Source of the DNA: Thermoanaerobaculia bacterium
GTDB taxonomy: Bacteria; Acidobacteriota; Thermoanaerobaculia; Gp7-AA8
NCBI GenBank assembly: GCA_036398925.1
Contig: DASWOB010000022.1
Coordinates: forward strand, 53,244-117,243
DNA: 64,000 nucleotides
Reading direction: 5' to 3'
Shown here: piece by piece, positions 1 through 58,674 of the stretch
Layout: each line of letters starts with the position of its first letter
Numbering within the stretch: the first letter of the stretch is position 1
Program-made: the position numbers and the translations under genes
The notes under the pieces: model-generated
Database searches by the model: none
Seen by the model: only the letters and a program-made list of their open reading frames with translations
Told to the model about the DNA's origin: nothing

Positions 1-2403
1 CTGGTGGTTGCCGTTCGTGAGGCGGAACTCGTCGGCGCCGGCGAGGACGTTGCCCTCGACTTCGGACAGCGTGTAGAAGCCCTGCATCTCGAGGCGGTCG
101 TTCATCCGGGCGCGGAAGCCGAGGTTGAGGCCGTTGTAGTCCGCCTCACCGTCGCCGATCCACATACGGTTGTTGTTGTTGATGCCGAGGGCCGCGAAAC
201 GGCGCGAGGTCATCGGGGTGCCGTTGTTGTCGAGGAAGCCGTTGTACCGGAAGCGGTACGGGATGTCGCGGTACTCGATGTGGCTGACGTCGACGTTGAC
301 GCCGAGCCAGCTGGTCAGCTCGGTCGCGTAGCCGAGCGAGATCTGATCGGAGTACGGGGTATTGGTGATCGACGGGTGCGCGACGTTGGCCGGCAGGGCG
401 CCTTCGAGCGGCGTCTCACCACCCGGGGGGAGCGGCTGTCCCGGCTGGAAGAAGGTGCCGTCCGGGTTGCGGATGCCGTTCGGATCCGAGAGGTTGTAGA
501 TCGTGCCGAAGTTCGACAGAACCGCCTCGGCCGGGAAGAGGATGGTGGCGTTGGTGTACGGGAAGTCGTAGTAACGACCGAGACCGCCACGGAGCACGTG
601 CTTGCTGTCGGGGGTCAGGTTGTAGCTGAAGCCGAGACGCGGGGCGATGTTGTTCGTGTCGTTCTCGAGCTGTCCGTCCCAACCTTTGAACGCCTCGAGG
701 TAGTAGGCGTCGTTGTACTGGTTCTGGGTCGAGAGGATCTGCAGCACCGGGTTGGTGCTCTGATCGAGATCGAAGCCGGTCCAGAGGTCGTAGCGGAGAC
801 CGGCGTTGATGGTCAGGCGCGGGTTGATCTCGATGTCGTCCTGGAAGTAGTAGCTGTACTGGTCGACGGGGGTGGAGAAGCCGGCGAAGCCGCCGTTCAC
901 CGTGATGTTGGTGACGGGCGAGCCGAGGCGGTCTTCCATCAGGGTGTACTGGCCGGCCAGACCGGTGGTGAAGCTGCCACCGAGAATCGGCTCGTGGATC
1001 CACTGCGCGCCGGTCTTGAAGTCGTGACGGCGGCCGCCGAAGGTCGAGCTCCAGGAGAAGTCATTCTTGAACTGCGACTTTTCCTGGTTCGTGGTCTGCG
1101 GGGTGTTGGCGTTCTGGCCGAGGGTCACGCCGCTCGGGAAGGTGATGGCGGGATCGTCGGAGTCGGCGGTGATGGCGTTGTTGAACTTCGTCCACTGGTA
1201 GACGAAGTCGTTCACGCGCGAGCCGCCGAGCGTCCAGGTGTGACCGAGGAGGTACGACTCGTACTCGTTGGTGAGGGTGCCGAGCGAGGACGGCAGCGAG
1301 AGCGAGCCCGCGCCGTATTTGTCGGCGTTCTTCTGGTAGCCGTAGCGGACCTGAAGGAACTGATCGGCGGAGATGTTGACCGTGCCCTTGGCGGTGATCA
1401 GCTTGTCGGTGAAGGGGATGGGAACGGCGTCGCCGTCGAACTCCGGCAGGATGCCGTCGGTGTTGATGATGTAGGAGGAGGGACGCTCGGTCTCTTCGTA
1501 GGTGGCGAAGAAGTGAGCGCGATCGCGAACGATCGGGCCGCCGAGGGAGCCGCCCCACTGCTTGCGCTCGTACTCGGCCTTCTCGCCGCCGCCGATGCGC
1601 TCCGACTCGGTGATCGAGTTGAGGCGGTCGTCGCGGAAGAAGCCGTACGCGCTGCCGGCGAACTCGTTGGTGCCGGTCTTGGTGACGACCGAAAGAACGC
1701 CGCCCGACGAACGGCCGTACTCGGCCTTGTAGGACTGCGTCTGGATCGTGAACTCCTGCACCGCTTCGAGGTTGAAGTTCTGCAGCGCGCCACCGATGGT
1801 GTCGTCGGTGTTGTCGCCGCCGTCAACCTGGAAGTTGATGTTGCGGCCGATGCCGCCGTTGAGGGCGATGGTGAGCTGGCCCGGCTTGGTCGGGTCGGCG
1901 TTGTAGTTCAGCTGCGTGCCCGGCGCGAGCGTGCCGAGGTTCGCGAACTGGCGGCCGTTGAGCGGAAGGTTCTCGAGCTCTTCCTGGCTGACGGTCGTGC
2001 CGATGGCCGGAGCGGTGGCCACGAGCGGCGCGTCGGCCGTGACGGTGATCGATTCCTTGATCGCGGCCTGCGTCAGCTTGACGTCGAGGTCACGGGTACG
2101 GGCGACGTTCAGGACGACGTCCGTGGTGTCGACCGCGCCGAAGCCCGACAGCTCGGCGTGCACGGTGTAGGTGCCGGCCGGAAGGCTGGGGAAACGGTAC
2201 GAGCCGTCCGCTTCGGTGACGGTCGTGCGGCTCAGACCGGTGGCGTTGTTCGTGGCGGTGACGGTGACGCCGGGAAGAGCAGCGCCGGTCTCGTCGAGCA
2301 CGCGGCCGGTGAGGATCGCGTTACTGCCCTGAGCCAGGGCCACCGTGGTGATGGAAAGGAGTAGGAAGCAAAGCAGCAGGATGCGCTGCGGCCGTGAAGA
2401 CAT
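1..2403 (-). CDS. TonB-dependent outer-membrane receptor with a carboxypeptidase-regulatory-like N-terminal domain (start complete; C-terminal part lies beyond the window start)
   Basis: Hand translation of the minus strand from the ATG at 2401-2403 gives MSSRPQRILLLCFLLLSITTVALAQGSNAILTGRVLDETGAALPGVTVTATNNATGLSRTTVTEADGSYRFPSLPAGTYTVHAELSGFG... There is a signal peptide, then a CarbopepD_reg-like domain, then Gly/Asn/Tyr/Asp-rich plug/barrel-like sequence. It is absent from the ORF track because it runs off the window edge. The 786-aa plus-strand ORF 4..2364 is its antisense shadow. An SD-like gaggggg precedes the ATG. Confidence 0.8.
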   Translation of the reverse strand, partial: MSSRPQRILLLCFLLLSITTVALAQGSNAILTGRVLDETGAALPGVTVTATNNATGLSRTTVTEADGSYRFPSLPAGTYTVHAELSGFGAVDTTDVVLNVARTRDLDVKLTQAAIKESITVTADAPLVATAPAIGTTVSQEELENLPLNGRQFANLGTLAPGTQLNYNADPTKPGQLTIALNGGIGRNINFQVDGGDNTDDTIGGALQNFNLEAVQEFTIQTQSYKAEYGRSSGGVLSVVTKTGTNEFAGSAYGFFRDDRLNSITESERIGGGEKAEYERKQWGGSLGGPIVRDRAHFFATYEETERPSSYIINTDGILPEFDGDAVPIPFTDKLITAKGTVNISADQFLQVRYGYQKNADKYGAGSLSLPSSLGTLTNEYESYLLGHTWTLGGSRVNDFVYQWTKFNNAITADSDDPAITFPSGVTLGQNANTPQTTNQEKSQFKNDFSWSSTFGGRRHDFKTGAQWIHEPILGGSFTTGLAGQYTLMEDRLGSPVTNITVNGGFAGFSTPVDQYSYYFQDDIEINPRLTINAGLRYDLWTGFDLDQSTNPVLQILSTQNQYNDAYYLEAFKGWDGQLENDTNNIAPRLGFSYNLTPDSKHVLRGGLGRYYDFPYTNATILFPAEAVLSNFGTIYNLSDPNGIRNPDGTFFQPGQPLPPGGETPLEGALPANVAHPSITNTPYSDQISLGYATELTSWLGVNVDVSHIEYRDIPYRFRYNGFLDNNGTPMTSRRFAALGINNNNRMWIGDGEADYNGLNLGFRARMNDRLEMQGFYTLSEVEGNVLAGADEFRLTNGNHQ

Positions 2404-2511
2404 ATAGAACCCCCTCGCTAAATTGTGCCGATGTCGTTAGCCGCACTATAGAGGAAAAGGCTGAGGCGGGGGGAGCGGGGACCGGTTACATTCAGGTGCC
2501 CGACTGAAAAA

Positions 2512-4512
2512 TCAGCGGCTTCGGATGCCGGCCAGCAGGGTCCGCGCGGCGGCCCGTTGTTCTTCAGGAGCGGCGCTTTTCAACAGCGCTTCGTATTGCG
2601 CGGCCGCTTCCTGCACTCTTCCGGATTCCTGCAGGGCGATGCCGAGATTGAGCCGCGCTTTGTGGAAATCAGGCTGCAGGCGGATGGCCGTTTCGAAGGA
2701 GCGAACCGCTTCCGCGGGGCGTCGGCTCTGCACGAGGATGACGCCCAGTCCATTGTGCGGATCGGCGTAATTCGGCGACAGCTCGATCGCCTTCCGGTAC
2801 GCCGTCGCCGCGTCGCCGACGTTGGCGAGCGCACGCAGCGCGTTGCCGGCGTTGTTCCATCCGCGCGCATCGCGGGGATCGAGCTCGGTGGCGCGGCGGA
2901 AGGCATTCGCGGCAGCCTGCGCGTCGCCGCGCTGGATGAGGATCACCCCGATCGCGTTCTGCGTCGCCGCGCGCAGTGGGTCGAGCCGCGCCGATTCGGT
3001 GAGGGCCGCCAGCGCTTCATCGAGCTCGTTCGCTTCGGTCAGGGCAACACCGAGGTTGTACCAGGCGTCGGCGTCGGCCGGTGCGAGGGCGACCGTTCCG
3101 CGAAGGAGATCGACGGCGCTCTCGTTCTGCCCACCGTCGCGCTGCAGGCGCGCCAGGGCGGAGCGGAAGACCGGATTGTAGGGATCGCGGCGGACGAGAT
3201 TTTCGAGAACCGGAATGGACGTCCGTCCTCGCTCGAATTCGGTGAAGAGCGCGACCATCGCCTTCGGATCGGGACGCGTGGCGCGCCCCTGGACCGGCTG
3301 CGGCGAGACATAGCCGAGGCTCTCGAGCTTGCGGCGGGTCTCCTCGTCGACGCGCACGGCGGCCGGTACGACGGCGGTCTGGCGGATGGCGGTGAGGCGC
3401 GGAAGGAGCTCGCGCGCGGTGCGGCGTTCGTTGCTGATGACGTTGCGGATCTCGCGGGGATCGCCGGCGAGGTCGTAGAGCTCGGGATACGGCGCGCTGA
3501 TGACTTTCGTGTTCCTGTTGCGCAGCGAGGCGAGCTCGTTCCACCCGAATGTCAGCGGGTATTGCGTCTCCGCGTAAAGATCGACGGACGGAAGCGACTC
3601 GGCCAATACGTTGCGGCCGTCGACTTTGGGGAACTCGATCTCCAGCAGCGCGGCGACGGTCGGCGCGAGATCGACGGAGCTGACCGGCTCGCGCACGACG
3701 CGCGGTTCGACGTCCGGGGCGGCGATCAGCATCGGAACGTGGAGGGTGGACTGATAGAGAAGGAGGCCGTGCGTCCCTTCGCCGTGCTCGCCGAGCCCTT
3801 CGCCGTGATCGCCGACCACGATGACGATCGTGTTCTTCGTGTCGATCGCGCTGAGCAGCCGGCCGAGCTGCTGATCGACGTAGGCCACTTCGCCGTCGTA
3901 CGTCTGCGGATGCGGCGCGGGCGGCGCGTACGGCGCGTGCGCGTCCCACAGGTGCACCCAGGCAAACGAGGGCTGCTCGCTCGCCCCACCGAGCCACGCC
4001 ACTGCCCGGTCGACGACCGCATCGGCGCGACGCGCCGCCTCCAGCGAAACGTCGCCGCTCGAATCGCGCGGAATCTCGTCGTCGTACGTGTCGAAGCCGC
4101 GATCGAGACCGAAACGGTGATCGAGCACGAATGCGCCGACAAAGGCCGCGGTGCGATAGCCGTTGCGGGAGAGCGTCGTGGCGAGCGTTTCGCGGTCGGC
4201 CGGAAACGTTCCGGCGCCGTTGTTGCGCAATCCGTGATGGAGCGGGAGAAGGCCCGAAAGAATGCTCGCGTGCGCGGGCAACGTCAGTGGAACGGGCGAC
4301 TGCGCCTGCTCGAAACGAACGCCTTGCGCCGCGAGCCGGGAGAGATTCGGCGTCGTCGCGCGATCGGCCCGGAAGGTATCGAGCGTGATCAGTACGACGT
4401 TGTACTTTGGCGTTTCACGGGCGCACGCGGCGAGAAGGAGGAGCAGCGCGAGAAACGAACGATGAACGATGAAGGATGAGCGATGAACGGAGCGAGGCCA
4501 ATCCCAGTTCAT
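2512..4512 (-). CDS. Sulfatase-family hydrolase (alkaline-phosphatase superfamily) fused to C-terminal TPR repeats; probable lipoprotein (lipobox LAAC)
   Basis: 666-aa ORF. The N-terminus has NVVLITLDTFRAD and a later GDHGE motif typical of sulfatase/AP-superfamily enzymes. The C-terminal roughly 250 aa are TPR-like (AWYNLG, NAGNAL, NGLGVIL). The signal peptide ends LLLLLAACA. The start codon is embedded in a 30-bp inverted repeat (see feature 4462-4540). Confidence 0.8.
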   Translation of the reverse strand: MNWDWPRSVHRSSFIVHRSFLALLLLLAACARETPKYNVVLITLDTFRADRATTPNLSRLAAQGVRFEQAQSPVPLTLPAHASILSGLLPLHHGLRNNGAGTFPADRETLATTLSRNGYRTAAFVGAFVLDHRFGLDRGFDTYDDEIPRDSSGDVSLEAARRADAVVDRAVAWLGGASEQPSFAWVHLWDAHAPYAPPAPHPQTYDGEVAYVDQQLGRLLSAIDTKNTIVIVVGDHGEGLGEHGEGTHGLLLYQSTLHVPMLIAAPDVEPRVVREPVSSVDLAPTVAALLEIEFPKVDGRNVLAESLPSVDLYAETQYPLTFGWNELASLRNRNTKVISAPYPELYDLAGDPREIRNVISNERRTARELLPRLTAIRQTAVVPAAVRVDEETRRKLESLGYVSPQPVQGRATRPDPKAMVALFTEFERGRTSIPVLENLVRRDPYNPVFRSALARLQRDGGQNESAVDLLRGTVALAPADADAWYNLGVALTEANELDEALAALTESARLDPLRAATQNAIGVILIQRGDAQAAANAFRRATELDPRDARGWNNAGNALRALANVGDAATAYRKAIELSPNYADPHNGLGVILVQSRRPAEAVRSFETAIRLQPDFHKARLNLGIALQESGRVQEAAAQYEALLKSAAPEEQRAAARTLLAGIRSR

Positions 4513-4540
4513 CGTTCATCCTTCATCGTTCATCGTTGAT
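4462..4540. repeat. 30-bp near-perfect inverted repeat (hairpin) made of GAACGATGAA-type microrepeats at the pccB/sulfatase junction
   Basis: 4462-4491 is aacgatgaacgatgaaggatgagcgatgaa. 4508-4537 is ttcatcgttcatccttcatcgttcatcgtt. The second is the exact reverse complement of the first with one mismatch. The loop is about 16 nt. It sits directly after the pccB stop (4541) and contains the sulfatase ATG at 4510-4512. Confidence 0.75.
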
Positions 4541-6067
4541 CTACAGCGGGATGTTGCCGTGTTTTTTCGGCGGGTTCTTGTCGCGTTTGTTGCGCAGCAT
4601 GGCGAACGTGGTGATCAGCTTGCGGCGGGTGAAACGCGGCTCGATGATCTCGTCGACGTAGCCACGCTCGGCGGCGATGTAGGGGTTGGCGAATTTCTCT
4701 TTGTACTCCGCGACCTTGGCCTCGCGATCGCTGGCACCGCGATAGAGGATGTTCACAGCCCCTTCGGCGCCCATAACGGCGATCTCGGCGGTCGGGTACG
4801 CGAAGTTCATGTCCGCGCGGATGTGCTTCGAGTTCATGACGCAGTACGCGCCGCCGTAGGCCTTGCGGGTGATGACCGTGACCTTCGGGACGGTTGCTTC
4901 GGCGAGCGAATAGAGCAGCTTTGCGCCATGAATGATGATGCCGCCGTACTCCTGCGCCGTTCCGGGCAGAAATCCCGGCACGTCTTCGAAGACCAGCAGC
5001 GGGATGTTGAAGGCGTCGCAGAAACGAACGAAGCGCGCGCCTTTGCGCGACGCGTCGATGTCGAGGACCCCCGCGAGAAAGGCGGGCTGGTTGGCGACGA
5101 TGCCGATCGACTGGCCGTTGAGGCGGATGAAGCCGACCACGATGTTACGGGCGTAGTGCTGGTGCACCTCGAGGAAGTGCGATTCGTCGGCGATTGTGGT
5201 GATCAGCTCGCGGATGTCGTACGGCTGGTTGGGGCTCTCGGGGATGAAGGAGTCGAGCTGGGTGTCGACGCGATTGACGTCGTCTTTGGTAGCAACGCGC
5301 GGCGCCTCCTCCATGTTGTTGGACGGCATGTAGGAGAGGAGCTCGCGAATCAGCGCGATGCAATCCTCGTCCGATTCGGCGGCGAAGCTGGCCACGCCCG
5401 AGACCTGGTTATGAGTGTCGGCGCCGCCGAGCTTTTCCTTCGTCACCTCTTCGTGCGTGACAGTCTTGATGACGTCTGGACCGGTGACGAACATGTAGCT
5501 CGTCTTTTTCACCATCAGGATGAAGTCGGTGATGGCGGGCGAATAAACGGCCCCGCCGGCGCACGGCCCCATGATCGCGGAGATCTGCGGTACGACGCCC
5601 GAGGCGAGCGTGTTGCGGAGGAAGATGTCGGCATAGCCGCCGAGGGAGACAACGCCCTCCTGGATGCGCGCGCCGCCTGAGTCGTTCAGGCCGACCACCG
5701 GCGCGCCGTTCTTCATCGCCAGATCCATGATCTTGACGATCTTCGCGGCGTGCGTTTCGGAGAGTGAACCGCCGAAGACCGTGAAGTCCTGCGCGAAGGC
5801 GTAGACCAGGCGGCCCTGAATCGTGCCGTAGCCGGTGATGACACCGTCGCCGGGGACGCGCTGTTTTTCGAGGCCAAAGTCGGTGGAGCGGTGGGTGACG
5901 AGCTGATCGAGCTCCTGGAACGAACCGGGATCGAAGAGGAGGCTGATGCGCTCGCGCGCGGTCAGTTTTCCTTCATTGTGCTGGCGGTCGATGCGGGCCT
6001 GACCGCCGCCCATCTCGCTTTCGGCTTTGCGGCGCTCGAGCTCTTGCAGTTTTTCTTCGCGTGACAT
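4541..6067 (-). CDS. pccB: Propionyl-CoA / acyl-CoA carboxylase carboxyltransferase (beta) subunit
   Basis: 508-aa ORF with full-length similarity to the PccB/AccD5 carboxyltransferase family. Motifs include [31 protein letters not shown] and [13 protein letters not shown]. Confidence 0.9.
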
Positions 6068-6073
6068 TCGGCC

Positions 6074-6337
6074 CTACAGGATGAAGTTGCGCTCGGCGGC
6101 GATGCGGCGCATTTCGCTCCACAGTTCTTCTTCGCTCGCCTTCTTTTTCACCCGGCCCCGCGCTTCGAGCTCGATCGCGTCGGCGATCGCGAAGTTGTCG
6201 GCGAGGGTGCGCGTGACGACCAGAATCGCGGCCTCCGCGTCACCGAAGTCGATGACCCCGCGGTCTTCGAGCCGGTTGACGAGGGAGCGGGCGAGGAACT
6301 CGGTACGTTTGTCGTTGGCGCTCACGACCCGGCGCAT
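6074..6337 (-). CDS. Hypothetical small protein (87 aa) immediately upstream of pccB
   Basis: The ORF is co-oriented with pccB and 6 nt from it, and its start overlaps the stop of the upstream ORF by 1 nt (operon context). I recognise no family. Confidence 0.35.
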   Translation of the reverse strand: MRRVVSANDKRTEFLARSLVNRLEDRGVIDFGDAEAAILVVTRTLADNFAIADAIELEARGRVKKKASEEELWSEMRRIAAERNFIL

Positions 6338-7137
6338 TAAAGCATCATCTCCCCGCCGAAGGAACCCGCTCCATAGGGATAGAACGACAGAGCGGTTCCG
6401 ACGGCTCGCGGTGGTGTGATGCGGATGGTGGCGGGCCAGGCTTTCCGGCCGTCGTCGATGAGGACGTGCAGCGTGGGGCCGTGCGGCGGCGCGAGAAGGG
6501 CGATCGCGCGCGGGGCATCTTCAAGCTCATGACTGTGGCAGCGCGGCGCCAGGTGCATCGGGACGCGCAGCGGACGGACGCGGTAGCTGGGGCGATACCA
6601 GTTGCTGCCGGGCGTCTCGACGATGGGAAAGCCTTTGCCGTCGACGCCGCCCGGCTTCTGAAGGACCTCCGTCAGTTGCGAGAGGAGCGATTGCGAGACG
6701 AGCGCGGCGGCGACGTTCGGCGCGAGGCGAAGGCGCCGCGGAGTCGCCCCTTCAGCGAGGCGATCGAGCGCGCGGGCGATGCTCTCGATTTCGCCGAGGT
6801 CGAAGCTCGCCTGATCGATCAGCACGCGAAAGCGATGGCCGATGGCGAGGTGAATCCGCTCGCTGCGCTCGCTCCACTGGCGTCCGTCGCAATCGTGTTC
6901 CGCCTCCCCTTCCGCGACGATCAGACGCTCGATGGCATGCGGCGCCACGATCGCGCGGATGCGGTTGGCCACGTCACTGACGGTTTCGGCGTGCGGCGGC
7001 AGAGCGGACGCTTGCGGATCGGGACGACAGGTAAAGGTCTCGCCGTCATCGATCGCGATCCCGCTCTCCACCACCCGCACGACCACGCCGTTCTCCCACC
7101 GCACTACCCGACCGGCCTTGCGATAGATCTCGCTCAT
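6337..7137 (-). CDS. Hypothetical protein (266 aa), possible partner of the upstream TldD-like protein
   Basis: 266-aa ORF in an operon. It has a 4-nt ATGA overlap with the upstream HExxxH protein and a 1-nt overlap with the downstream small ORF. It ends GAGSFGGEMML. No recognisable motif otherwise. Confidence 0.35.
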   Translation of the reverse strand: MSEIYRKAGRVVRWENGVVVRVVESGIAIDDGETFTCRPDPQASALPPHAETVSDVANRIRAIVAPHAIERLIVAEGEAEHDCDGRQWSERSERIHLAIGHRFRVLIDQASFDLGEIESIARALDRLAEGATPRRLRLAPNVAAALVSQSLLSQLTEVLQKPGGVDGKGFPIVETPGSNWYRPSYRVRPLRVPMHLAPRCHSHELEDAPRAIALLAPPHGPTLHVLIDDGRKAWPATIRITPPRAVGTALSFYPYGAGSFGGEMML

Positions 7138-7961
7138 CGGAAGCTCGTGGTCATTACCGGCGCATACGATCCGACGATCAGCTCCTGCCCTTCGGACGAA
7201 CAGACCACACCGGGATAGCGCAACGGCTCGCCATCCGCGCCGTGGAAGACGATGTCGCTCCGCTTGACGCTGATGGTGAAGGGCGCCAGCGCCTCGCCGT
7301 CCAGCGACGCCGCGGCCACAGACAACGTGATCGTGTCATCGAGCACTTCGTAGTAGCCACCGTCGAGCAGTTCCACCTCGATGAATTGCGCCGGCAGCGC
7401 AAACGGCGCGTCGTGCTGCGTGACGGTGAGGGTGGTCATGCGGCGCAGGGGAACATCGCGGAACGACTCGCGGCGCCACGCCAGCGGGACGTCGACGGTC
7501 AGCCATTCCGGAAGATCGAGCGGAGGCAGATCGCGCTCGAGTGGATGGCCAACGGCTTCGTGCAGCAGCACCGCGGCGGAACCGTTGCGCCAGACCAGCG
7601 GCAGCTCGCGCCAGGGAGCTTCGCGGGTACCGCGACGTTCCGGGATCAACGACAGGTCGTGCGCGAAGTGGCCGGGAGTGGTGACGACAGAGATGCCGTT
7701 GTGGGTAACGATCAGCGCGAGGGAGGTTTCATCGGTGGTGGCGCGGCCGACGATGCGGAGTTTCCGGAGTGGTGAGAGCGGTGGCGTCGCCACCGCAGTC
7801 CAGATCGTGTCGAGGCGCGCCAGGAGCTCTTCGTCAGGCGCATCACTCGCTTCGATTACGTCCCTGTCGCGATCGGCGATGCCGTGCATCAATCGCGATT
7901 CCACCAGACGGCCGCCGACCCAGAGCTCCTCGCGCGCGGCGATCGCGAACCGGTCGCTCAA
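7134..7961 (-). CDS. TldD/PmbA-like putative zinc metalloprotease (HExxxH motif HEAVGH), unusually short
   Basis: 275-aa ORF containing LLHEAVGHPLERD. The TldD active site is HExxxH (E. coli CHEAVGHGLE). TldD/PmbA proteins are about 450-480 aa, so this is a compact or diverged version. It overlaps the Ser/Thr kinase stop by 4 nt (ATGA). Confidence 0.4.
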   Translation of the reverse strand: MSDRFAIAAREELWVGGRLVESRLMHGIADRDRDVIEASDAPDEELLARLDTIWTAVATPPLSPLRKLRIVGRATTDETSLALIVTHNGISVVTTPGHFAHDLSLIPERRGTREAPWRELPLVWRNGSAAVLLHEAVGHPLERDLPPLDLPEWLTVDVPLAWRRESFRDVPLRRMTTLTVTQHDAPFALPAQFIEVELLDGGYYEVLDDTITLSVAAASLDGEALAPFTISVKRSDIVFHGADGEPLRYPGVVCSSEGQELIVGSYAPVMTTSFR

Positions 7962-10021: not shown

Positions 10022-10130
10022 TCATAACCTCAAGATGTGGAGCACGGCGGTGCGGCACCGCCGCGCCCGGGCCGGGATTTTAAATTATGATCCCGAGTCT
10101 GTTTGTGAAATCCACATCGAGGTCAGCCAG

Positions 10131-12230
10131 ATGAAGGTTTACGCGGGTCCTGACATTCGCAACGTGGCGATCGTCGGGCACAACGACACGGGCAAGACGA
10201 CCCTGGTTTCACAGCTCCTCTTCAACGCCGGCGCGACCACGCGCCAGGGCCGGATCGAAGATGGAACGACCACCACGGATTTCGATCCGGATGAGATCGA
10301 GCGAAAGCATTCGATCTCGGCGGCGATCGCGTACGCGGAGTGGAAGAACACGAAGATCAACCTCCTCGACACGCCGGGCTTCGGCATCTTCATCATGGAA
10401 GCGAAGGGGGCGATGCGCGTCGCCGACTCCGCGGCCATCGTCGTCAGCGGCGTGACCGGCGTCGAAGTCACGACCGAGCGGGTCTGGAAGTTCGCGGAGG
10501 AGTTTCACCTGCCGCGCATCCTGATCGTGAACAAGATGGACCGCGAGCGCGCCTCGTCCGCACGCACGCTCGACGCGCTGCAGAAGAAGTTCGGCAAGAA
10601 CATCGTCCCCCTCCAGCTCCCGCTCGGGGAAGAGAAAGACTTCAGCGGCGTGGTCGACCTCATTTCCATGAAGGCTTACCAGTACGCCGCCGACGGCTCG
10701 GGCAAGGTCGAGGTGGTGGACATCCCGGCCAGCCACAAGGCGGACGCCGACGAATGGCGCGAGCGGCTGATCGAGAAGGTCGCGGAAGGCGACGACACGC
10801 TGATGGAGCGCTTCTTCGACCAGGGCGGCCTGTCGCAGGAAGAGCTGATCGATGGCCTCAAGCGCGAGGTCGCGCATCATCAGATCTACCCGGTCCTCTT
10901 CGCCTCGGCGTCGCACAACATCGGCGGTCATCCGATCCTCGATGCCTTCGTTTCGCTGCTCCCCTCGCCCGATGACGTCAAAGAGGTGCGGGGAACGAAT
11001 GCGAAGGGCGAACCGCTGACGTTCGATCGCCGGCCTGAGGCCTTCCCCTCCGCGCTCGTCTTCAAGACCTTTTCCGACCCGTTCTCGGGCCGCGTGTCGC
11101 TCTTCCGCGTTTACTCCGGCACGATCACCAGCGATCACGCCTACTGGAACAGCACCCGCGAGCACGAGGAACGCATCGGCAAGCTGCAGGTGCTGCAGGG
11201 GAAGACCCAGACCGCGGTGCAGGAGCTGCGCGCCGGTGACATCGGCGCGGTGGCGAAGCTGAAAGATACCGCCACCGGCGACACCCTCTGCGCGAAGGAC
11301 CACCAGATCCGCGTGCCGCACATCGACTACCCGGAAGCGGCGATCGCTTTTGCCGTGGAGCCGAAAGCGCGCGGCGACGAGGACAAGCTCGGCGCGGCCA
11401 TCCATCGTCTCATCGAAGAAGATCCGACCATCAAGTTCGCGCGCGACGAGCAGACCAAGGAGTTCCTCATCAGCGGTCAGGGACAGCTGCACGTCGAGAT
11501 CGTCGTCGCGAAGCTGAAGAAAAAGTACAACGTCGACGTGGTGCTCCATCCGCCGAAGGTGCCGTACCGCGAGACCATCACCAAGCCGGCCGACGCGCAC
11601 GGGCGGCACAAGAAGCAGTCGGGCGGCCACGGCCAGTTCGCCGACTGCAAGATCACGGTCGAGCCGCTGCCGCGCGGCGCCGACTTCGAGTTCGTCGACG
11701 AGATCTTCGGCGGCTCGATCCCCCGCCAGTACATCCCGGCCGTCGAGAAGGGCATCCAGGACGCGCGGGTGAAAGGCTACCTGGCCGGCTTCCCGATGGT
11801 CGACTTCCGGGTGCGGCTCAAGGATGGGCAGTACCACGACGTCGACTCGAGCGAAATGGCGTTCAAAATCGCTGGCTCGCTCGCCTATCAGGACGCGATG
11901 CAGAACGCCCGGCCGACGCTGCTCGAGCCGATCATGCACGTCGACATCTCCGCGCCGGCCGAATACGTCGGTGACATCATGGGCGACCTCAACGCGCGGC
12001 GCGGCCGCGTGGAGGGCGTCGATGCCGAAGAGGAAACGCAGACCATCAAGGCGCGTGTGCCGTTCAGCGAGATGCTGACCTACGGCTCGACGCTACGCTC
12101 GATCACGCAGGGACGCGGCACCTTCCACATGGAGTACTCGCATTACGAGGAAGTGCCGAAGCAACTGCAGGAAAAGATCATCAACGAGTCGAAGAAGGGC
12201 CACGGCGACGCCGCGGCCGCGCACCACTGA
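10131..12230 (+). CDS. Elongation factor G paralog (EF-G2-type translational GTPase)
   Basis: The ORF track starts at GTG 10035. The likely real start is the ATG at 10131 (MKVYAGPDIRNVAIVGHNDTGKTTL...), preceded by gagg. It has G1-G4 motifs, DTPGFGIF in place of the canonical DTPGHVDF, and EF-G domains II-V downstream. Confidence 0.85.
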   Translation: MKVYAGPDIRNVAIVGHNDTGKTTLVSQLLFNAGATTRQGRIEDGTTTTDFDPDEIERKHSISAAIAYAEWKNTKINLLDTPGFGIFIMEAKGAMRVADSAAIVVSGVTGVEVTTERVWKFAEEFHLPRILIVNKMDRERASSARTLDALQKKFGKNIVPLQLPLGEEKDFSGVVDLISMKAYQYAADGSGKVEVVDIPASHKADADEWRERLIEKVAEGDDTLMERFFDQGGLSQEELIDGLKREVAHHQIYPVLFASASHNIGGHPILDAFVSLLPSPDDVKEVRGTNAKGEPLTFDRRPEAFPSALVFKTFSDPFSGRVSLFRVYSGTITSDHAYWNSTREHEERIGKLQVLQGKTQTAVQELRAGDIGAVAKLKDTATGDTLCAKDHQIRVPHIDYPEAAIAFAVEPKARGDEDKLGAAIHRLIEEDPTIKFARDEQTKEFLISGQGQLHVEIVVAKLKKKYNVDVVLHPPKVPYRETITKPADAHGRHKKQSGGHGQFADCKITVEPLPRGADFEFVDEIFGGSIPRQYIPAVEKGIQDARVKGYLAGFPMVDFRVRLKDGQYHDVDSSEMAFKIAGSLAYQDAMQNARPTLLEPIMHVDISAPAEYVGDIMGDLNARRGRVEGVDAEEETQTIKARVPFSEMLTYGSTLRSITQGRGTFHMEYSHYEEVPKQLQEKIINESKKGHGDAAAAHH

Positions 12231-12235
12231 GTGAC

Positions 12236-12354
12236 GAGGGCCGAGAGTAGAGGGCCGAGGGCCGAGGGAGCAGCCTCATTCCCTTGTCCCTCGGCCCTTG
12301 TCCCTCGGCCCTTGTCCCTCGGCCCTTGGCCCTCGGCCCTTGGCCCTCGGCCCT
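12236..12354. repeat. Hairpin built from tandem microrepeats: (GGGCCGAG)x3 arm versus (CCCTCGGCCCTTGK)x6 arm. It forms the EF-G terminator, followed by a T-rich tract.
   Basis: 12236-12268 is gagggccgagagtagagggccgagggccgaggg. 12282-12354 has six tandem 13-mers ccctcggcccttg(t/g) that are complementary to the left arm in several registers. tgtcttattgtttttcg follows. It lies between the convergent EF-G and PEGA genes. Confidence 0.75.
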
Positions 12355-12357
12355 GTC

Positions 12358-12990
12358 TTATTGTTTTTCGAGCGTGACGCGCAGCCGGGCCACGTCCTGC
12401 TGGGCGTCTTCCGCGGCGGTGACGATGAACTGGCGCTCGCGGTAACCGTCGGCCACGGCGCGGATGGTGTAACTGCCGGCTTGCGGCAGTTCGTAGATTT
12501 CATCCGTCGAGTCGAACTGCCTCGCCTCGCCGATCGGCATGTCGTTCACGTAGAGCATCGCGTCGGGCGGGGTGATCTCGAAGATCACGCCGCGCCGCGC
12601 CCACGTTCTCACGGTCGCGCTGACGCCGCCGGGGCCGCCGCTGACGACGGCGCGAGCATCGCCGCTGACCGGTTCGTTGGCCGATGGGACATTCTCTCCA
12701 TTGTCGCCCGGCACGACCAGCGACGCGCCGGCCTCCGGCTCTCCCGGAGGGGCCGGGCTGGTGGCGGTACGCTGCGCGCCGTTGCCCGGCACCATCTGCA
12801 CGAGCGTGCCGTCTCGATAACGCAGCCCGGTCATCACCGCGAGCGCCGCCAGTGCCGCGAGCACGACGCCGATGGCCACCGGCACCCAGCGGGGCATCGG
12901 TGCGGATTCGGGCTCGGGTGGCTGCGGCGGCTCTACCGCGGGCGGTTCAGGAAGTTGCTCCGTCATCATTCTCCGCCTGCGCGTTGTCAT
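12358..12990 (-). CDS. Membrane-anchored PEGA-domain-like protein
   Basis: 210-aa ORF. It has an N-terminal TM helix (WVPVAIGVVLAALAALAVMTGL), a Pro/Gly-rich linker and a C-terminal YTIRAVADGYRERQFIV segment resembling PEGA domains. Confidence 0.45.
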   Translation of the reverse strand: MTTRRRRMMTEQLPEPPAVEPPQPPEPESAPMPRWVPVAIGVVLAALAALAVMTGLRYRDGTLVQMVPGNGAQRTATSPAPPGEPEAGASLVVPGDNGENVPSANEPVSGDARAVVSGGPGGVSATVRTWARRGVIFEITPPDAMLYVNDMPIGEARQFDSTDEIYELPQAGSYTIRAVADGYRERQFIVTAAEDAQQDVARLRVTLEKQ

Positions 12991-29589: not shown

Positions 29590-29693
29590 TACCGGGTGAA
29601 CGGGCCGGCTTCGGTGGCAACGAGCGGGTCGCTGTCGAGCCGTCGAGCGGCCTGACCGCGGAAGCAATCTCGCTGACGACGAAAGAGTGCGTG

Positions 29694-30075
29694 CTGGCGA
29701 TGCAAGCGCGATCGCTGGTAAGGGAAGGGCGGTGCGCCGGCAATGGAAGCGTGTTCGCTGGCAATGGAAGGGCGAGCGCTGGCAACGGAAGCGCGACCGC
29801 TGGCAACGGAAGCGCGTTCGCTGGCAACGGAAGCGCGACCGCCTGCAACGGAAGGGCGAGCGCTGGCAACGGAAGCGAGCTTTCTTACGTTGCAAGCCGC
29901 CCCGCTTCACTTGCCAGAGAACCTGGGTACGGAAGTCAGCGTGCGTTGTTGAGTTGCCAGCGGTCGCGCTCCCGTTGCCAGCGGTCGGCCTTCCGTTGCC
30001 AGCGGCCGCGCTTCCGTTGCCAGCGGTTGCCCTTCCGTTGCCAGCGGTCGTTCTTCCCGTGGCAACTGCCTTTTC
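29694..30075. repeat. Large imperfect palindrome: about 9 tandem 21-bp units (GCTGGCAACGGAAG + 7 variable nt) followed by about 6 units of the reverse complement (CGTTGCCAGCGG...CTTCC)
   Basis: 29737-29880 has repeats ctggcaa(c/t)ggaag(c/g)g(c/t)g(a/t)(c/g)cg with 21-nt period. 29950-30070 has cgttgccagcggnnnnncttc units that are exact reverse complements of the left units. A roughly 70-bp central spacer separates the arms. The array lies between the divergent HIBADH-like and DUF853 genes. Confidence 0.85.
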
Positions 30076-30217: not shown

Positions 30218-31774
30218 ATGACGAATTTCGACGAGACGTATCGCGCTGCATACGGCTTCCCCGATCCCTCGATCACCATCGGTCACGTGCTGCGCGACGG
30301 CAAAGCGTCCGGCGAGCTCCCCATCCGCATCCCGCTGCGGATGATGAACCGCCACGGCCTGATCGCCGGCTCGACCGGCACCGGCAAGACCCGCACGCTG
30401 CAACTCCTGGCGGAGGGGCTCTCGCGCGCGGGCGTGCCGGTGTTCCTCGCCGATGTGAAGGGCGACCTGGCGGGCATCGGCACGCCGGGCGTGGCGAACG
30501 ATCGGCTCAACGCGCGCGCGGCCGGCGTCGGCGCGACGTTCACGCCCGAGGCGTTTCCGGTGGAGTTTTTCAGCCTGACCGGCAGTCGCGGCACACAGCT
30601 CCGCGCGACGGTGTCTTCGTTCGGGCCGGTGCTGCTGGGGAAGGTGCTCGACCTGACCGAGGTGCAGCAGAGCGTCCTGGCGATGGTCTTCAAATACTGC
30701 GACGACCGGAAGATGCCGCTGCTCGATTTCGACGATCTGCGCGGCGTGCTGACGTACCTCTGCAACGAAGGGAAGCCGGAGCTGAAGAACTACGGCGGCA
30801 TGTCTGCCGCGACGGTCGGCGTGCTGGTGCGGAAGATGGTGGAGCTCGAACAGCAGGGCGCCGCGAAGTTCTTCGGCGAGCCGGAGCTCGACATCCACGA
30901 CCTCACCCGCACGGTCGACGGCCGCGGCGTGGTGAACATCCTCTCGCTGGCCGACGTGCAGGACAAGCCGCGCCTCTACTCGGCGTTCCTGATGTGGCTC
31001 CTCGGGCAGTTCTACTACCGGATGCCGGAGGTCGGCGATCCCGACAAGCCGAAGCTGGTCTTCTTCTTCGACGAGGCGCATCAGCTCTTCGACGACGCCT
31101 CATCGGCGCTGGTGGAGCACATCGAGCAGGTGGCGCGCCTCATCCGCTCGAAAGGCATCGGCGTCTTCTTCATCACCCAGACCCCGAAGGACGTTGATGA
31201 GGACGTGCTGGCGCAGCTCGGCAATCGCGTGCAGCACGCCATCCGTGCCTTCACGCCAAAGGACGCGAAGAACGTCAAGGCGACGGCGTCGACCTTTCCG
31301 ATCAGCGAGCACGTCGACGTGGCCAAGTCGCTGACCACCCTCGGCATTGGCGAGGCGCTGGTGACGGTGCTCGATCCGAAGGGCGTTCCGACCGCGGTGG
31401 CGACCTTTCAGGTGCTCGCCCCCTCGTCGCTGATGACCGCGATCGACGACGCCGGCTACGCGCGGGCGCTGCAGTCGTCGGCAATCCACGCCAAGTACGC
31501 GACAGCCATCAATCGCGAGAGCGCGCACGAGATCCTCCAGCGCAAGCTCGCCGAGGCGGCGGAGGTGCAGGAGCCGGCTGCAGGCGGATCGGAGCGGCCG
31601 GACTACGGGGAGCCTGTGACCTTCGGGCAAAGGACGACTGCGCGACGAAGCTCAGCGCGCCCGCGAAAAAGCACCACCGAACGGGTGCTGCAGAACGCCG
31701 TCAATCAGGCCACCCGGACCGCCACGAGGGAGCTGACCCGCGGCATCGCCGGGATTCTCAAGCGAATGTTCTAG
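30218..31774 (+). CDS. DUF853-family (YjgR/HerA-like) P-loop ATPase
   Basis: 518-aa ORF with Walker A GSTGTGKTRT and Walker B VFFFDEAH. The overall architecture matches helicase HerA-like DUF853 proteins. Confidence 0.8.
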   Translation: MTNFDETYRAAYGFPDPSITIGHVLRDGKASGELPIRIPLRMMNRHGLIAGSTGTGKTRTLQLLAEGLSRAGVPVFLADVKGDLAGIGTPGVANDRLNARAAGVGATFTPEAFPVEFFSLTGSRGTQLRATVSSFGPVLLGKVLDLTEVQQSVLAMVFKYCDDRKMPLLDFDDLRGVLTYLCNEGKPELKNYGGMSAATVGVLVRKMVELEQQGAAKFFGEPELDIHDLTRTVDGRGVVNILSLADVQDKPRLYSAFLMWLLGQFYYRMPEVGDPDKPKLVFFFDEAHQLFDDASSALVEHIEQVARLIRSKGIGVFFITQTPKDVDEDVLAQLGNRVQHAIRAFTPKDAKNVKATASTFPISEHVDVAKSLTTLGIGEALVTVLDPKGVPTAVATFQVLAPSSLMTAIDDAGYARALQSSAIHAKYATAINRESAHEILQRKLAEAAEVQEPAAGGSERPDYGEPVTFGQRTTARRSSARPRKSTTERVLQNAVNQATRTATRELTRGIAGILKRMF

Positions 31775-31798: not shown

Positions 31799-31860
31799 GC
31801 AAAAAGACCCGGCTGGGAGAGGAGGGTGTCATCCGATCCTGACCAGCCGGGTCTTTTTGC
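31799..31860. terminator. Bidirectional intrinsic terminator-like hairpin (A5-stem-loop-stem-T5)
   Basis: gcaaaaagacccggctgg ... ccagccgggtctttttgc is a perfect 11-bp stem with flanking A and T tracts, 25 nt after the DUF853 stop. Confidence 0.6.
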
Positions 31861-43827: not shown

Positions 43828-45168
43828 CTATGCCGCGGGGAGGCGCACTTCAAATGTCGCTCCGCGGCCACCCTCGCGATTCCAGACCGCGATCCGGCCG
43901 CCGTGCAGGACCACCAGGTGCTTGGTGATGGCCAGCCCCAGGCCGGTGCCGGGGACGTTCTGGGAGCGGCTCCGGTCGACCCGGTAGAAGCGGTGGAAGA
44001 TCCGTTCGAGCTCGGCCGGCGGAATCCCCTCCCCCTCGTCGGACACGCGCACCACCGCCTCCTCCCCTTCCTGCGCCACTTCGATCAGCACCTCTCCCCG
44101 TCCCCCGCCATGCTTCCACGCGTTGTCGAGGAGATTCGAGACGATCTGCTGGGCACGCTGAGAGTCGACGTTGGCCCGTGCCGGCTCCCCCTCGACGCGA
44201 AATACCAGACCGTCGGCGCGGCCGCGGAACTCGCTGCAGAGCTCCTCGGCCAGTTCGCGCAGGTCGACCGCCCGCCGCTGCAGCGAGACCCGTCCCGCTT
44301 CGATGTTGTTCAGGTCGGAGAGGTCCTTCACCAGCCGCTCGATCCGCCCGAGCTGCCGCAGCATCACCTCCCGCAACTGGCGCTCGAGCTCCGGCTCGAC
44401 CCCCTCCTCCAGCGTCTCCACCGCGCTGCGCAGGCCGGCCAGCGGCGTCCGCACCTCGTGGGAGAAGTCGTCCAGGAACTCCTTCCGGATGCGCTGCAGC
44501 CGTTCGAGCTGGGTGACGTCGATGAAGAGCGCCACCGCCGCGATCTCGTTCGATGCCTCCACCGGGAAGACGCGCACTTCGATCTGCCGCTCGTGCATCT
44601 CGATCCGGTCGTTCGACGGATGCCCCTGCAGCGCTTTGTCGAGCGCCTGGACGATCGACTGCTGCCGCACGACCTCGAGAAAAGACCGGCCGATCGGATT
44701 CGCACCGCCGCCGAAGATCTCCGAGACGCGTGGATTCGCGAACACCACCCGGCCGCGCGGATTCACAGCAATCAAGCCTTCGCCGAGGGAGGCGACGATC
44801 TCCTCCATCGCCGCGCGGTGCTCCTCGTGCGCCTGGCGCTGGCGAAGGATCGTCGCGCGCAGCTCTTCGACTCCGCGGGCGATGTCATCCAGCTCGCCGT
44901 GAAACACGCGGTCGGCGATCGGCCTGTCGACCTGCCCCTCCGCCAGCGCGCGCGTCCGCTCCGTCAGGAGGTCGAGATCGTTCGCACGCCGTACCGCCCA
45001 GAGAAAGACGCCGCTCCACGGCAGGAGGAAGAGGAGAAAGCTGATGATGGCCAGCACCACCGCCGCCGGCTGCTCCACCCCGGCCCGATCGAGCGCGGCG
45101 CCGAATCCCCACGCCACCGCGATGGCGATGACGAGCGAAACGTAAAGCAGGAGTCGTAAGGGATGCAT
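43828..45168 (-). CDS. phoR: Sensor histidine kinase (PhoR-like)
   Basis: Likely start is the ATG at 45168 (MHPLRLLLYVSLVIAIAVAW...). It has two TM segments, then a HAMP/PAS-like region, the H box FSHEVRTPLAGL, and N, G1 and G2 boxes (LDNAWKHG, GTGLGLAI). The ORF-track 5' extension translates the CCTCAAT repeat hairpin. Confidence 0.8.
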   Translation of the reverse strand: MHPLRLLLYVSLVIAIAVAWGFGAALDRAGVEQPAAVVLAIISFLLFLLPWSGVFLWAVRRANDLDLLTERTRALAEGQVDRPIADRVFHGELDDIARGVEELRATILRQRQAHEEHRAAMEEIVASLGEGLIAVNPRGRVVFANPRVSEIFGGGANPIGRSFLEVVRQQSIVQALDKALQGHPSNDRIEMHERQIEVRVFPVEASNEIAAVALFIDVTQLERLQRIRKEFLDDFSHEVRTPLAGLRSAVETLEEGVEPELERQLREVMLRQLGRIERLVKDLSDLNNIEAGRVSLQRRAVDLRELAEELCSEFRGRADGLVFRVEGEPARANVDSQRAQQIVSNLLDNAWKHGGGRGEVLIEVAQEGEEAVVRVSDEGEGIPPAELERIFHRFYRVDRSRSQNVPGTGLGLAITKHLVVLHGGRIAVWNREGGRGATFEVRLPAA

Positions 45169-45180
45169 GGCGGCTGCGCC

Positions 45181-45262
45181 GGATTGAGGATTGAGGGATT
45201 GAGGATTGAGGAAGAGGATCGCGCAGCCTTCCTCAATCCTCAATCCTCAATCCTCAATTCCC
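45181..45262. repeat. Intercistronic hairpin built from tandem heptamers: (ATTGAGG)x4 versus (CCTCAAT)x4
   Basis: ggattgaggattgagggattgaggattgaggaag ... cttcctcaatcctcaatcctcaatcctcaattcc. It fills the phoB-phoR intergenic gap, and its right arm overlaps the phoB stop codon. Confidence 0.8.
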
Positions 45263-50270: not shown

Positions 50271-50314
50271 GCCCGCGAGGCTAAAGGGCGGGGGTGGAGG
50301 AGGGTGGCAGTACG

Positions 50315-50331
50315 TGTAAATTCGGTGTGAA
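50315..50331 (-). promoter_or_regulatory. Candidate Pho box (direct hexamer repeats TTCACA-N5-TTTACA, 11-bp phasing) upstream of pstS
   Basis: The minus-strand sequence about 45-60 nt upstream of the pstS ATG reads ttcacaccgaatttacacg. This resembles PhoP/PhoB-type direct-repeat boxes, TT(A/T/C)ACA with a 4-6 bp spacer. Confidence 0.4.
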
Positions 50332-50815: not shown

Positions 50816-50932
50816 CGCCCGGATTGGAGGGGCGCGGCCGGGCACCACCGGCGTCGCCGACCCTTCCCTCACCTTCGAATCGCTGAAAGACCGAATGAAT
50901 CCAAGACAGAGAAAGAAAAAGGAGAAGAAATC

Positions 50933-58665: not shown

Positions 58666-58674
58666 AACCGGCTC

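Follow-up and report, generated by a model that had tools for sequence, protein, structure and literature searches.

The junction of two minus-strand genes in a 64,000-nt stretch of Thermoanaerobaculia DNA (contig DASWOB010000022.1, positions 53,244 to 117,243; hereafter the window) raises the question of why a long hairpin built of short repeats lies over the translation start of the second gene. The first gene encodes an acyl-CoA carboxyltransferase beta subunit and the second, immediately downstream, a sulfatase-TPR lipoprotein (Table 1). The name pccB is used for the former as a family-level label only, because its score against the NCBIfam mmdA model (TIGR01117; 832 bits) was under the model cut-off of 998.8. 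On the messenger RNA (mRNA) strand the pccB stop codon TAG is followed by the heptamers of the 5' arm, the loop and the heptamers of the 3' arm. The inverted repeat comprises two arms of 31 nt each (4458-4488 and 4507-4537), 97% complementary and 18 nt apart, and the base of the stem is located 3 nt past the pccB stop. A preliminary description of the sequence had reported an inverted repeat with one mismatch directly after this stop codon; the single mismatch was confirmed and the stem was measured at 31 bp. Both arms are tandem arrays of period 7, read on the plus strand as GAACGAT x4.7 at 4457-4489 and GTTCATC x5.0 at 4507-4541. A 19-nt repeat motif had six matches in the 64-kb window versus 0.03 expected, all six within the hairpin, and the G+C content of the stem was 45% versus 65.5% for the whole window. 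The 121-nt minus-strand RNA was predicted to fold at -58.6 kcal/mol (z = -7.8), and none of 200 shuffled sequences was as stable.

The sulfatase start codon is itself part of the stem. The ATG at 4512-4510 is the sole in-frame ATG, GTG or TTG between the upstream in-frame stop TGA at 4518-4516 and the lipobox Cys30, which bears out the earlier remark that the only possible start lies inside the 5' arm. A Shine-Dalgarno (SD)-like AAGGA at 4523-4519 arises from a single variant unit, GATGAAG, and the 3' arm mirrors this unit with the partner CTTCATC; compared with the orthologous locus L040, the change is compensated. Both AAGGA and ATG were paired in the minimum-energy and centroid folds. The 3' arm codes for VHRSSFIVHR, residues 9-18 (V9-R18) of the sulfatase precursor. 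The peptide repeat VHRSSFI-VHRSF in the encoded signal peptide, previously ascribed to microrepeats in the stem, is indeed accounted for by the heptamer arrays. In lipoprotein signal peptides, an n-region with positive charge is joined to an h-region of hydrophobic residues and to the lipobox [LVI][ASTVI][GAS]C. Inspection by eye identified such a signal peptidase II-type pattern in the precursor (MNWDWPRSVHRSSFIVHRS / FLALLLLLAA / lipobox L-A-A-C30), and the orthologues retain the Cys at this position.

The hairpin differs from intrinsic terminators and from the known Rfam families. Intrinsic terminators have a G+C-rich stem of approximately 5-14 bp and a loop of 3-8 nt, followed by a run of U. 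The stem at the junction has 31 bp at 45% G+C and an 18-nt loop, and the mRNA after it (CGUUCGUUUCUCGCG) contains no run of four or more U, while some orthologues have U-rich tails. The terminator scan did not list the hairpin, a scan that accepts loops of 3-8 nt only and cannot evaluate one of 18 nt. A consensus promoter scan identified no promoter-like site in 2000-7000. The possibility, raised initially, that the hairpin terminates transcription between pccB and the sulfatase gene is thus unlikely, as the 3' arm is inside the sulfatase coding sequence and no contiguous U-tract is present here. It was further weakened by hairpin-less orthologues, in which the pccB stop overlaps a sulfatase start lacking an SD of its own, and by L072, where a hairpin of the same kind is located downstream of a canonical terminator. 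The Rfam scan of 4000-5000 returned only microRNA-precursor matches (47.6 bits versus a threshold of 100), which reflect the long hairpin only. At the gathering threshold, the Rfam scan of the whole window returned no match but one transfer RNA (90 nt, 60767-60856, minus strand).

Genome and metagenome collections were scanned with the sulfatase, yielding 114 loci (designated by L and a number). Junctions were recognized by a pccB C-terminus (..KKHGNIPL-stop) less than 600 nt upstream of the sulfatase motif LITLDTFRAD. Such junctions were present in 44 loci, 39 of them distinct, from a clade of uncultured Thermoanaerobaculia. The contig of the window corresponds to Ga0334964_000031 in JGI 3300034146, and the protein is also found at NCBI in a Thermoanaerobaculia metagenome-assembled genome. 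A hairpin was located at the same position in 26 of the 39 junctions and was absent from 13. These 13 loci indicate that the hairpin is dispensable. The 26 stems had 25-47 bp and loops of 8-29 nt, they started at a median of approximately +2 nt from the pccB stop, and 817 of 886 stem positions (92%) were Watson-Crick pairs. Folded individually, the orthologous hairpins reached -46 to -76 kcal/mol (z = -6.5 to -13.8). The arms were always inverted heptamer arrays, and the unit varied by locus among at least 11 families (GATGAAC, AGGATGA, AGGCAGA/G, AAAGCAG, AATGCAG, AAACCAG, AATTGAA, GGGCAGT, GAGGGAT, AAGAATG and TTCGAAA).

The unit types were scattered over a rough sulfatase tree, and pairs of loci with 91-98% identical pccB 3' ends could carry wholly different junctions: no hairpin in L074 versus AATGCAG in L089, GATGAAC in L040 versus AATGCAG in L108, and no hairpin in L070 versus AGGCAGA in L082. 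An assembly artefact is ruled out by four locus pairs, each drawn from different samples and with flanks of 99-100% identity, that shared identical junctions. Within unit families, changes in one arm were compensated in the other, including a double transversion in L047 (AATTCAA/TTGAATT), an AATGCGG/CCGCATT pair in L089 and the paired GATGAAG/CTTCATC change of the window, as against L040, in which only the 3' change CTTCATC is present. Alignment folding of the AATGCAG family recovered just four pairs with compensated changes, the register being ambiguous in tandem arrays, for which the ungapped comparison of arm against arm was more informative. In L001 a decayed GATGAGC array stands right after the stop and is followed by a new 42-bp AATGCAG hairpin, an arrangement that shows a succession of units. 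By these comparisons, the junction hairpin is kept in position and structure and not in sequence. In another locus, L110 (approximately 2400-2560), the pccB frame is truncated in ..AVNILYR and runs straight into a hairpin of AGGCAGA type that closely resembles the one in L088, either an array-mediated deletion or a mis-assembly.

The same observations bear on the idea that a mobile or dispersed palindrome was inserted after pccB, such as a repetitive extragenic palindromic (REP) sequence or REPIN, a MITE (miniature inverted-repeat transposable element) or an integron attC site. The palindrome does lie directly past a stop codon, a location shared by REP and attC sites. However, the 64-kb window held no other copy, the unit differed at each locus, the arms are internally periodic, and the loop keeps what looks like ancestral n-region coding sequence. 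By reading, the arms contain neither a GTAG/CGTC head nor attC-like RYYYAAC/GTTRRRY cores. A REP/REPIN origin was rejected on these grounds, namely no further copies in the window, unrelated units elsewhere and no GTAG/CGTC head; RAYT genes were not searched for. We regard insertion of any such element as very improbable.

The 13 hairpin-less junctions were short and encoded signal peptides of 14-17 aa, e.g., MKRAAIFLLLFLGC. In these loci the sulfatase starts either with a GTG overlapping the pccB stop (..CTGTGA, position -4) or with an ATG 20 nt upstream, which sits in the His-Gly codons of pccB. No SD was present ahead of these starts, and neighbouring genes carry GGAGG. The gene pair of the hairpin-less loci therefore looks translationally coupled, as the start overlaps the stop and the SD is absent. 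Twenty loci start at -4 or -20, about nine of them with a hairpin. The position of the start codon relative to the stem varied, being at the stem base, within the 5' arm or in the loop (L038). Sequestration of the start, as stated in the preliminary description, hence holds for the window, where ATG and AAGGA are buried, and is not conserved among the orthologues. Loci whose unit is free of stop codons keep the start at -4 or -20, and translation then runs through the entire hairpin. Full read-through was found in L079, where the 5' arm encodes TRQKAEGRRQKW and the 3' arm IAVLLPSAFCLLTC, as well as in L072 and L002. In L072 the sulfatase gene has lost pccB and has a canonical terminator ahead of it, yet a fully translated AAAGCAG hairpin still covers its 5' end. 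Units containing TGA (GATGAAC, AGGATGA and others) cannot be read through, and these loci, like the window, start at an ATG close to where the 5' arm ends.

In loci that translate both arms, the signal peptide takes its charged part from the purine-rich 5' arm and its hydrophobic part from the 3' arm. Peptides encoded by the 5' arms were hydrophilic (mean hydropathy -1.1 to -3.0), with zero or positive net charge for stop-free units, and those encoded by the 3' arms were hydrophobic (0 to +2.4). The opposite hydropathies arise because a codon with T in its middle position gives A there when reverse-complemented. Read from the translations, the arms thus provide a signal peptide with both its n-region and its h-region, and we infer that this is the reason why the hairpin is tolerated here. 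A pyrimidine-rich 3' array alone, in the part coding for the hydrophobic core, was found in L037, L042, L084/L096 and L092, and such arrays may be read as the seed of the 3' arm. Within the full-text literature, which was covered incompletely, no hairpin arms were described as encoding two halves of a signal peptide.

All three phases of the sulfatase frame relative to pccB occurred among the orthologues, and the phase fitted the start available, which means that gains and losses of 7 nt were repeatedly followed by start-codon switching. Another explanation is a contingency locus, in which gain or loss of a 7-nt unit would shift the frame or the start and thereby turn the sulfatase on or off. 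In favour of it are a unit length not divisible by 3, arrays that span the start codon and codons 9-18, in the start and signal-peptide region of an exported protein, and the three phases, which imply repeated changes in unit number. However, all 39 distinct junctions were 'on', each with a plausible signal peptide and its start in frame. The four pairs with nearly identical flanks shared identical junctions and no length variants were found within 90% protein clusters, both small samples; similar hairpins stand where no frame is at stake (between phoB and phoR and between convergent genes), and each arm has just 4-5 units. Phase variation was accordingly judged improbable.

The reading we favour, with somewhat less than even confidence, is that the stem silences independent initiation, so that the sulfatase would depend on ribosomes arriving from pccB. 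The ancestral start would have overlapped the pccB stop (GTGA) and been followed by a short lipoprotein signal peptide. Replication slippage then probably expanded the pyrimidine-rich sequence coding for the hydrophobic core into a heptamer array, the future 3' arm, and fold-back or a template switch probably copied this array in inverted orientation just past the pccB stop, giving the 5' arm. Continued slippage, together with correction between the arms, would keep the arms matched while units turn over, and the signal peptide would tolerate them because the reverse complement of hydrophobic codons gives charged or polar residues. Among the long simple repeats of bacteria, heptanucleotide units are the commonest, a fact ascribed to slippage of the polymerase (PMC4679880). 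A stem of -58 kcal/mol would hide AAGGA and the sole start, free 30S subunits could not initiate, and ribosomes finishing pccB, which would open the stem, would be the only source of sulfatase translation. The window agrees with a coupling structure in that the initiation site is paired, the stop of the upstream open reading frame (ORF) adjoins the stem, and no GGAGG SD, such as neighbouring genes carry, is present at the sulfatase gene. Silencing of the second gene of a coupled pair by a structure is a recognized mechanism, and a structure directly past the upstream stop tends to lower the efficiency of coupling (PMC12548453). Strict coupling with a lower downstream yield would therefore be expected, the net result being obligatory coupling to pccB and reduced sulfatase output. 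An unoccupied stem would be a plausible substrate of RNase III.

Ribosomes leaving pccB might reinitiate through 5-codon mini-ORFs in the GATGAAC units, whose stops overlap the next ATG. Each such unit holds ATGA, an overlapping start and stop; the ATG of unit n is terminated by the TGA of unit n+2, and this TGA overlaps the next ATG, so that a chain of 5-codon mini-ORFs is formed. Exact chains that begin at the first ATG past the pccB stop and reach the sulfatase ATG by way of one or two mini-ORFs were found in L004, L040, L045, L109, L001 and L059. To our knowledge, a chain of mini-ORFs with ATGA overlaps has no described counterpart. The chain toward the sulfatase in the window runs from ATC 4540, a decayed ATG (INDER-stop), to ATG 4526 (MKDER-stop) and on to ATG 4512, and ATG 4519 opens a 34-codon out-of-frame ORF that competes with the correct route. 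A termination-reinitiation relay is possible in the window and would not be a clean one. The units of wrong parity in L004, L045 and L109 lack an ATG, an alternating loss that is suggestive of selection.

Several observations weigh against the coupling proposal. Only thermodynamics and gene layout point to a regulatory effect, the hairpin is missing from 13 of the 39 orthologues and is thus non-essential, and the start is not at a conserved place relative to the stem (base, arm or loop). Of the sense and antisense folds, sense was the more stable in 15 loci and antisense in 12 (Wilcoxon p = 0.35), the window itself folded better in antisense (-71.6 versus -65.7 kcal/mol), and antisense was better in nine of ten non-coding hairpins of the class described below. 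G.U mismatches outnumbered A.C mismatches on the sense strand (28 versus 8); because the folding energies show no strand preference this excess is not decisive, and it could reflect a coding or mutational bias and not selection on RNA. As for the relay, the first ATG past the pccB stop in the window (4533) leads into the wrong frame and the first unit of the correct chain reads ATC, while the alternating loss of ATG could equally come from duplication of a 14-nt double unit.

The hairpin was not specific to the sulfatase gene and is no one-off element of riboswitch type. Tandem-repeat and inverted-repeat scans revealed that most of the longest hairpins in the window are inverted heptamer arrays, each with its own unit, whose stems begin at or within approximately 5 nt of a stop codon (Table 1). 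One of them, at 12229-12354, fills the spacer between the convergent stops of an EF-G-like gene (10035-12230, plus strand) and a gene encoding a 210-aa product without a Pfam match (12358-12990, minus strand). Its arrays are CGAGGGC x4.9 and CCCTCGG x9.6 with a 14-nt superperiod, CCCTTGTCCCTCGG, and a T-rich tail on the plus strand. The hairpin at 45181-45261 stands between a PhoR-like kinase gene (43828-45168) and an OmpR-type response regulator gene (45254-45949), the latter with its stop within the 5' arm. The related arrays at 58603-58670 begin 5 nt past the stop of a gene for a KGG-repeat stress protein (58675-59316, minus strand); a plus-strand gene converging on them ends 95 nt away. 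Ordinary short terminator-like palindromes are also present in the window, e.g., at 31799-31860, and look different, so the heptamer hairpins are a separate kind of object.

Relatives of the phoB-phoR site, gathered via the PhoR-like kinase, gave an occupancy of 5/6, i.e., the window and four of the five relatives sampled. The spacer unit was GGATTGA in the window, L115 and L118, GTTGTCG/CGACAAC in L119 and TTGCTGG/CCAGCAA in L120 (hairpins at approximately 860-1000 in the four relatives), and L116 had a 6-nt gap and no hairpin. These hairpins were fully intergenic, with the phoR-like start 8-13 nt beyond the stem and no SD. L118 carried an extra CAGCAAC hairpin after the phoR stop, at the junction of phoR and the next gene. 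The site is part of a phoU-phoB-phoR-PhoU_div-PHO4 cluster. At the junction of pccB with the small gene just upstream of it, heptamer-type hairpins were present in 2/22 loci, so occupancy depends on the site. The two are imperfect hairpins (L036, 455-596, and L077, 826-912; GCTCTCA.../...CAACAGC) between the small gene (..ERNFIL-stop) and pccB, and the AGGAG SD of pccB is located in the 3' arm of the L077 hairpin. Two further loci, L041 (approximately 170-290) and L082 (approximately 780-910), have at this junction a non-heptamer imperfect palindrome of approximately 110 nt (..GTCATTCCGAGCCGGGAAGACGGCGAGGAATCCCC...GGGGATCCTTCGCCGTCTTCGCGGCTCAGGATGAC..) that looks like a dispersed element of REP or MITE type.

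Over 763 kb, 103 of 205 tandem arrays and 37 of 44 inverted array pairs had period 7. Outside the junction, the pccB-linked clade contained eight period-7 arrays in 208 kb, to which the window adds four, and none was found in 167 kb of a sister clade. This sister clade comprises 26 loci in which the sulfatase gene has its own conserved upstream region, without pccB and without a hairpin. The conserved non-coding region of approximately 170 nt (..GGCGGCGCGAGGTTAGTATTTTTAGACGGTTAGCGCAAG..CCTTCAATAATTCGGATTTTCGATTCGAATGATTGGTGTCCCACC..; e.g., L063, approximately 2380-2560, L055, L058 and L003) includes a palindrome, and in L063 and L055 it had no Rfam match at the gathering threshold. Judged from sequence, the junction hairpin belongs to a class, specific to the lineage, of long and near-perfect hairpins made of inverted 7-nt arrays at or within a few bases of stop codons in uncultured soil Thermoanaerobaculia. 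Inverted heptamer-array hairpins were not described for Acidobacteriota in the incompletely covered full-text literature. We propose, only tentatively, that this is an undescribed repeat class whose members are born and replaced in place at stops and not transposed, are kept paired by correction or selection, and would act as gates that make a downstream gene dependent on upstream translation, their arms being recruited as halves of signal peptides and as ATGA mini-ORFs that pass ribosomes on.

A purely mutational by-product is a serious rival, possible although in our view the less probable course. According to this explanation, DNA-level slippage, fold-back or template switching and arm correction would suffice, and the hairpins, without any selected regulatory role, would persist only where the intergenic spacer and the sequence coding for the signal peptide tolerate them, with their effects on translation offset by moves of the start. 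The distribution of period-7 arrays is consistent with it, as they follow the lineage, and the clade difference, which also counts against coupling, can reflect mutational propensity and not selection at the junction. The fast replacement of units, the 13 loci without a hairpin, the one-armed loci, the lack of a sense-strand preference in folding energy, the occurrence of hairpins in several contexts, including between convergent genes, and a start that wanders over three phases point in the same direction. Occupancy, however, was site-dependent (26/39 at the pccB-sulfatase junction and 5/6 at phoB-phoR versus 2/22 at the small-gene-pccB junction, which is also insert-tolerant), the stems consistently adjoined stop codons, and G.U exceeded A.C mismatches on the sense strand. 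Moreover, pairing at 92% of positions despite fast turnover needs either selection or very active correction.

The stems may alternatively act on the mRNA itself. Cleavage by RNase III, a block to 3'-exonucleases or partial termination would then uncouple the fates of the pccB and sulfatase messages. The near-perfect stems of 25-47 bp are long enough for RNase III, and intercistronic REP hairpins and the RNase III sites of phage T7 are known to uncouple the fates of segments of an operon mRNA. At several operon junctions, as well as where convergent genes end, the stems stand directly past stops. In some orthologues a run rich in U follows the 3' arm (L040 TCTTTTTAA, L045, L088 and L046), and a heptamer-repeat hairpin of Haemophilus influenzae hmw1A that is cut by RNase III provides a precedent (PMC12721329). 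However, the sequence past the stem in the window (CGTTCGTTTCTC) contains no contiguous U-tract, and cleavage or termination would destroy the sulfatase message, as the 3' arm lies in its coding sequence and the ATG in the 5' arm. The L072 hairpin comes after a canonical terminator, and canonical short terminators in these genomes look different (31799-31860). Processing, stability or attenuation is therefore rather unlikely to be the explanation.

The closest of the known systems were compared with the hairpin. The 5' untranslated region (5'-UTR) of H. influenzae hmw1A contains an (ATCTTTC)n heptamer-repeat hairpin that is processed by RNase III and controls expression post-transcriptionally at a proven phase-variable locus (PMC12721329). 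The feature common to hmw1A and the window is a long hairpin with an arm made of a 7-nt repeat, placed at the 5' end of a gene whose product is exported or surface-located. The hmw1A structure differs in that its left arm alone is a repeat array, the right arm being G-rich and non-repeat, and in that it lies in a 5'-UTR past its own promoter; here both arms are arrays, and the hairpin is intercistronic, overlaps coding sequence and encodes part of a signal peptide. Unlike hmw1A, no copy-number polymorphism was seen here and a role of RNase III is only putative. Translational coupling by RNA unfolding and reinitiation has been described for the coat and lysis genes of phages MS2 and fr and for genes VII-IX of phage f1 (PMC12548453). 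These share with the junction a structure that hides the downstream start, an upstream stop at the structure and a weak or absent downstream SD, and the orthologues show the classic 4-nt overlap (GTGA). In contrast to the phage structures, the junctions here have much longer stems (31 bp, reaching 47), which are built of tandem repeats, change sequence between close relatives and are often fully translated.

Heptanucleotide arrays of cyanobacteria and Beggiatoaceae (short tandemly repeated repetitive (STRR) sequences; TAACTGA) occur in 2-6 or more copies in intergenic positions near starts, and a role in translation has been suggested for them (PMC4679880). The resemblance lies in tandem 7-nt units close to start codons, whereas those arrays are direct repeats of one genome-wide unit, with a single inverted case reported (PMC4679880). 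The arrays here are inverted pairs that form hairpins, with a unit varying by site. The CTCTT repeat of Neisseria opa genes is a single direct coding array in the signal-peptide region that causes on/off frameshifts. It shares with the sulfatase arrays a pyrimidine-rich repeat, not a multiple of 3, in the part coding for the hydrophobic core, but an inverted partner array is present here and no 'off' alleles occurred among the 39 loci. For the REP sequences and bacterial interspersed mosaic elements (BIMEs) of enterobacteria, e.g., at malE-malF, roles in mRNA stability, attenuation and differential expression have been proposed. They too are stable palindromes past stops, within operons and between convergent genes; however, REPs are dispersed, conserved in sequence and RAYT-mobilised, while the elements here are site-specific in sequence, periodic inside and apparently grown in place. 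What is new relative to known repeat-built regulatory or intercistronic hairpins would be the paired inverted arrays, the in-place replacement, the dual coding use and, possibly, a mini-ORF relay.

If the coupling proposal holds, such hairpins would be a simple and rapidly evolvable means of tuning expression ratios within operons, and one stretch of DNA would serve as a strong RNA or DNA structure and as signal-peptide coding sequence. Whatever the function, the position and fold of a non-coding structure persist here while its sequence is wholly replaced between close relatives. This combines repeat growth with compensatory evolution and offers a natural system for the study of slippage, template switching and palindrome tolerance. 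Starts and N-termini beside such hairpins are not transferable by homology in annotation, because the orthologues use three phases and three kinds of start. The class and its evolutionary behaviour are more surprising than the single hairpin.

Table 1. Coordinates of the junction features and of related hairpins in the window
Feature	Position	Strand	Remarks
Acyl-CoA carboxyltransferase beta subunit gene ('pccB'-like), 508 aa	4541-6067	-	Pfam PF01039 (Carboxyl_trans); mmdA subfamily
pccB stop TAG	4543-4541	-	
Sulfatase-TPR lipoprotein gene, 666 aa	2512-4512	-	downstream of pccB; public gene calls use the same start
5' arm on mRNA, ~5 heptamers: (ATCAACG) ATGAACG ATGAAGG ATGAACG ATGAAC	4507-4541	-	paired part 4537-4507
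Loop, 18 nt, coding for W3-S8 of the sulfatase precursor	4489-4506	-	
3' arm on mRNA: GTTCATC GCTCATC CTTCATC GTTCATC GTT	4457-4489	-	paired part 4488-4458
SD-like AAGGA, 6 nt 5' of ATG	4519-4523	-	from a single variant unit GATGAAG
Sulfatase start ATG, base-paired in the 5' arm (its last ATG)	4510-4512	-	
Lipoprotein signal peptide coding region M1-C30, MNWDWPRSVHRSSFIVHRSFLALLLLLAAC, lipobox LAAC	4423-4512	-	pattern read by eye
Mini-ORF MKDER-stop, start ATG 4526	4509-4526	-	TGA 4511-4509 overlaps sulfatase ATG 4512
Mini-ORF MNDEG-stop, start ATG 4533	4516-4533	-	TGA 4518-4516 overlaps ATG 4519
CGAGGGC/CCCTCGG heptamer hairpin	12229-12354	.	-90.1 kcal/mol, z -8.7
GGATTGA/TCAATCC heptamer hairpin	45181-45261	-	-62.5 kcal/mol, z -8.2
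Inverted 8-10-nt arrays GTTCCTCGGG / CCGAGGAA, related to the class	58603-58670	-	

Three minus-strand genes 5' of pccB (6074-6337, 6337-7137 and 7134-7961) form a tightly packed, overlapping string, and their products (87 aa ending in ..ERNFIL, 266 aa and 275 aa) had no Pfam or NCBIfam match. According to the gene list of L034, a Ser/Thr kinase-TPR gene is at the head of the gene string upstream of pccB. Other repeats were also present in the window. Two inverted arrays of a 21-nt unit, 75 nt apart, were located at 29693-29877 (GCTGGCAACGGAAGCGCGAGC x8.8) and 29953-30057 (reverse complement, x5.0), in a divergent region upstream of a HerA-like helicase gene (30218-31774). A further 21-nt tandem array with internal palindromes (CTTCAACTTTAAGGACGATCG x9.9, 50607-50814) lies in a stretch of approximately 2 kb with lower G+C content and little convincing coding sequence (49461-51521); a CRISPR (clustered regularly interspaced short palindromic repeats) array was rejected for it, as it has no spacers. 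Tandem repeats of 21 nt and 15 nt at 54978-55146, inside the minus-strand ORF 54113-55411, are probably coding repeats of 7 and 5 residues.

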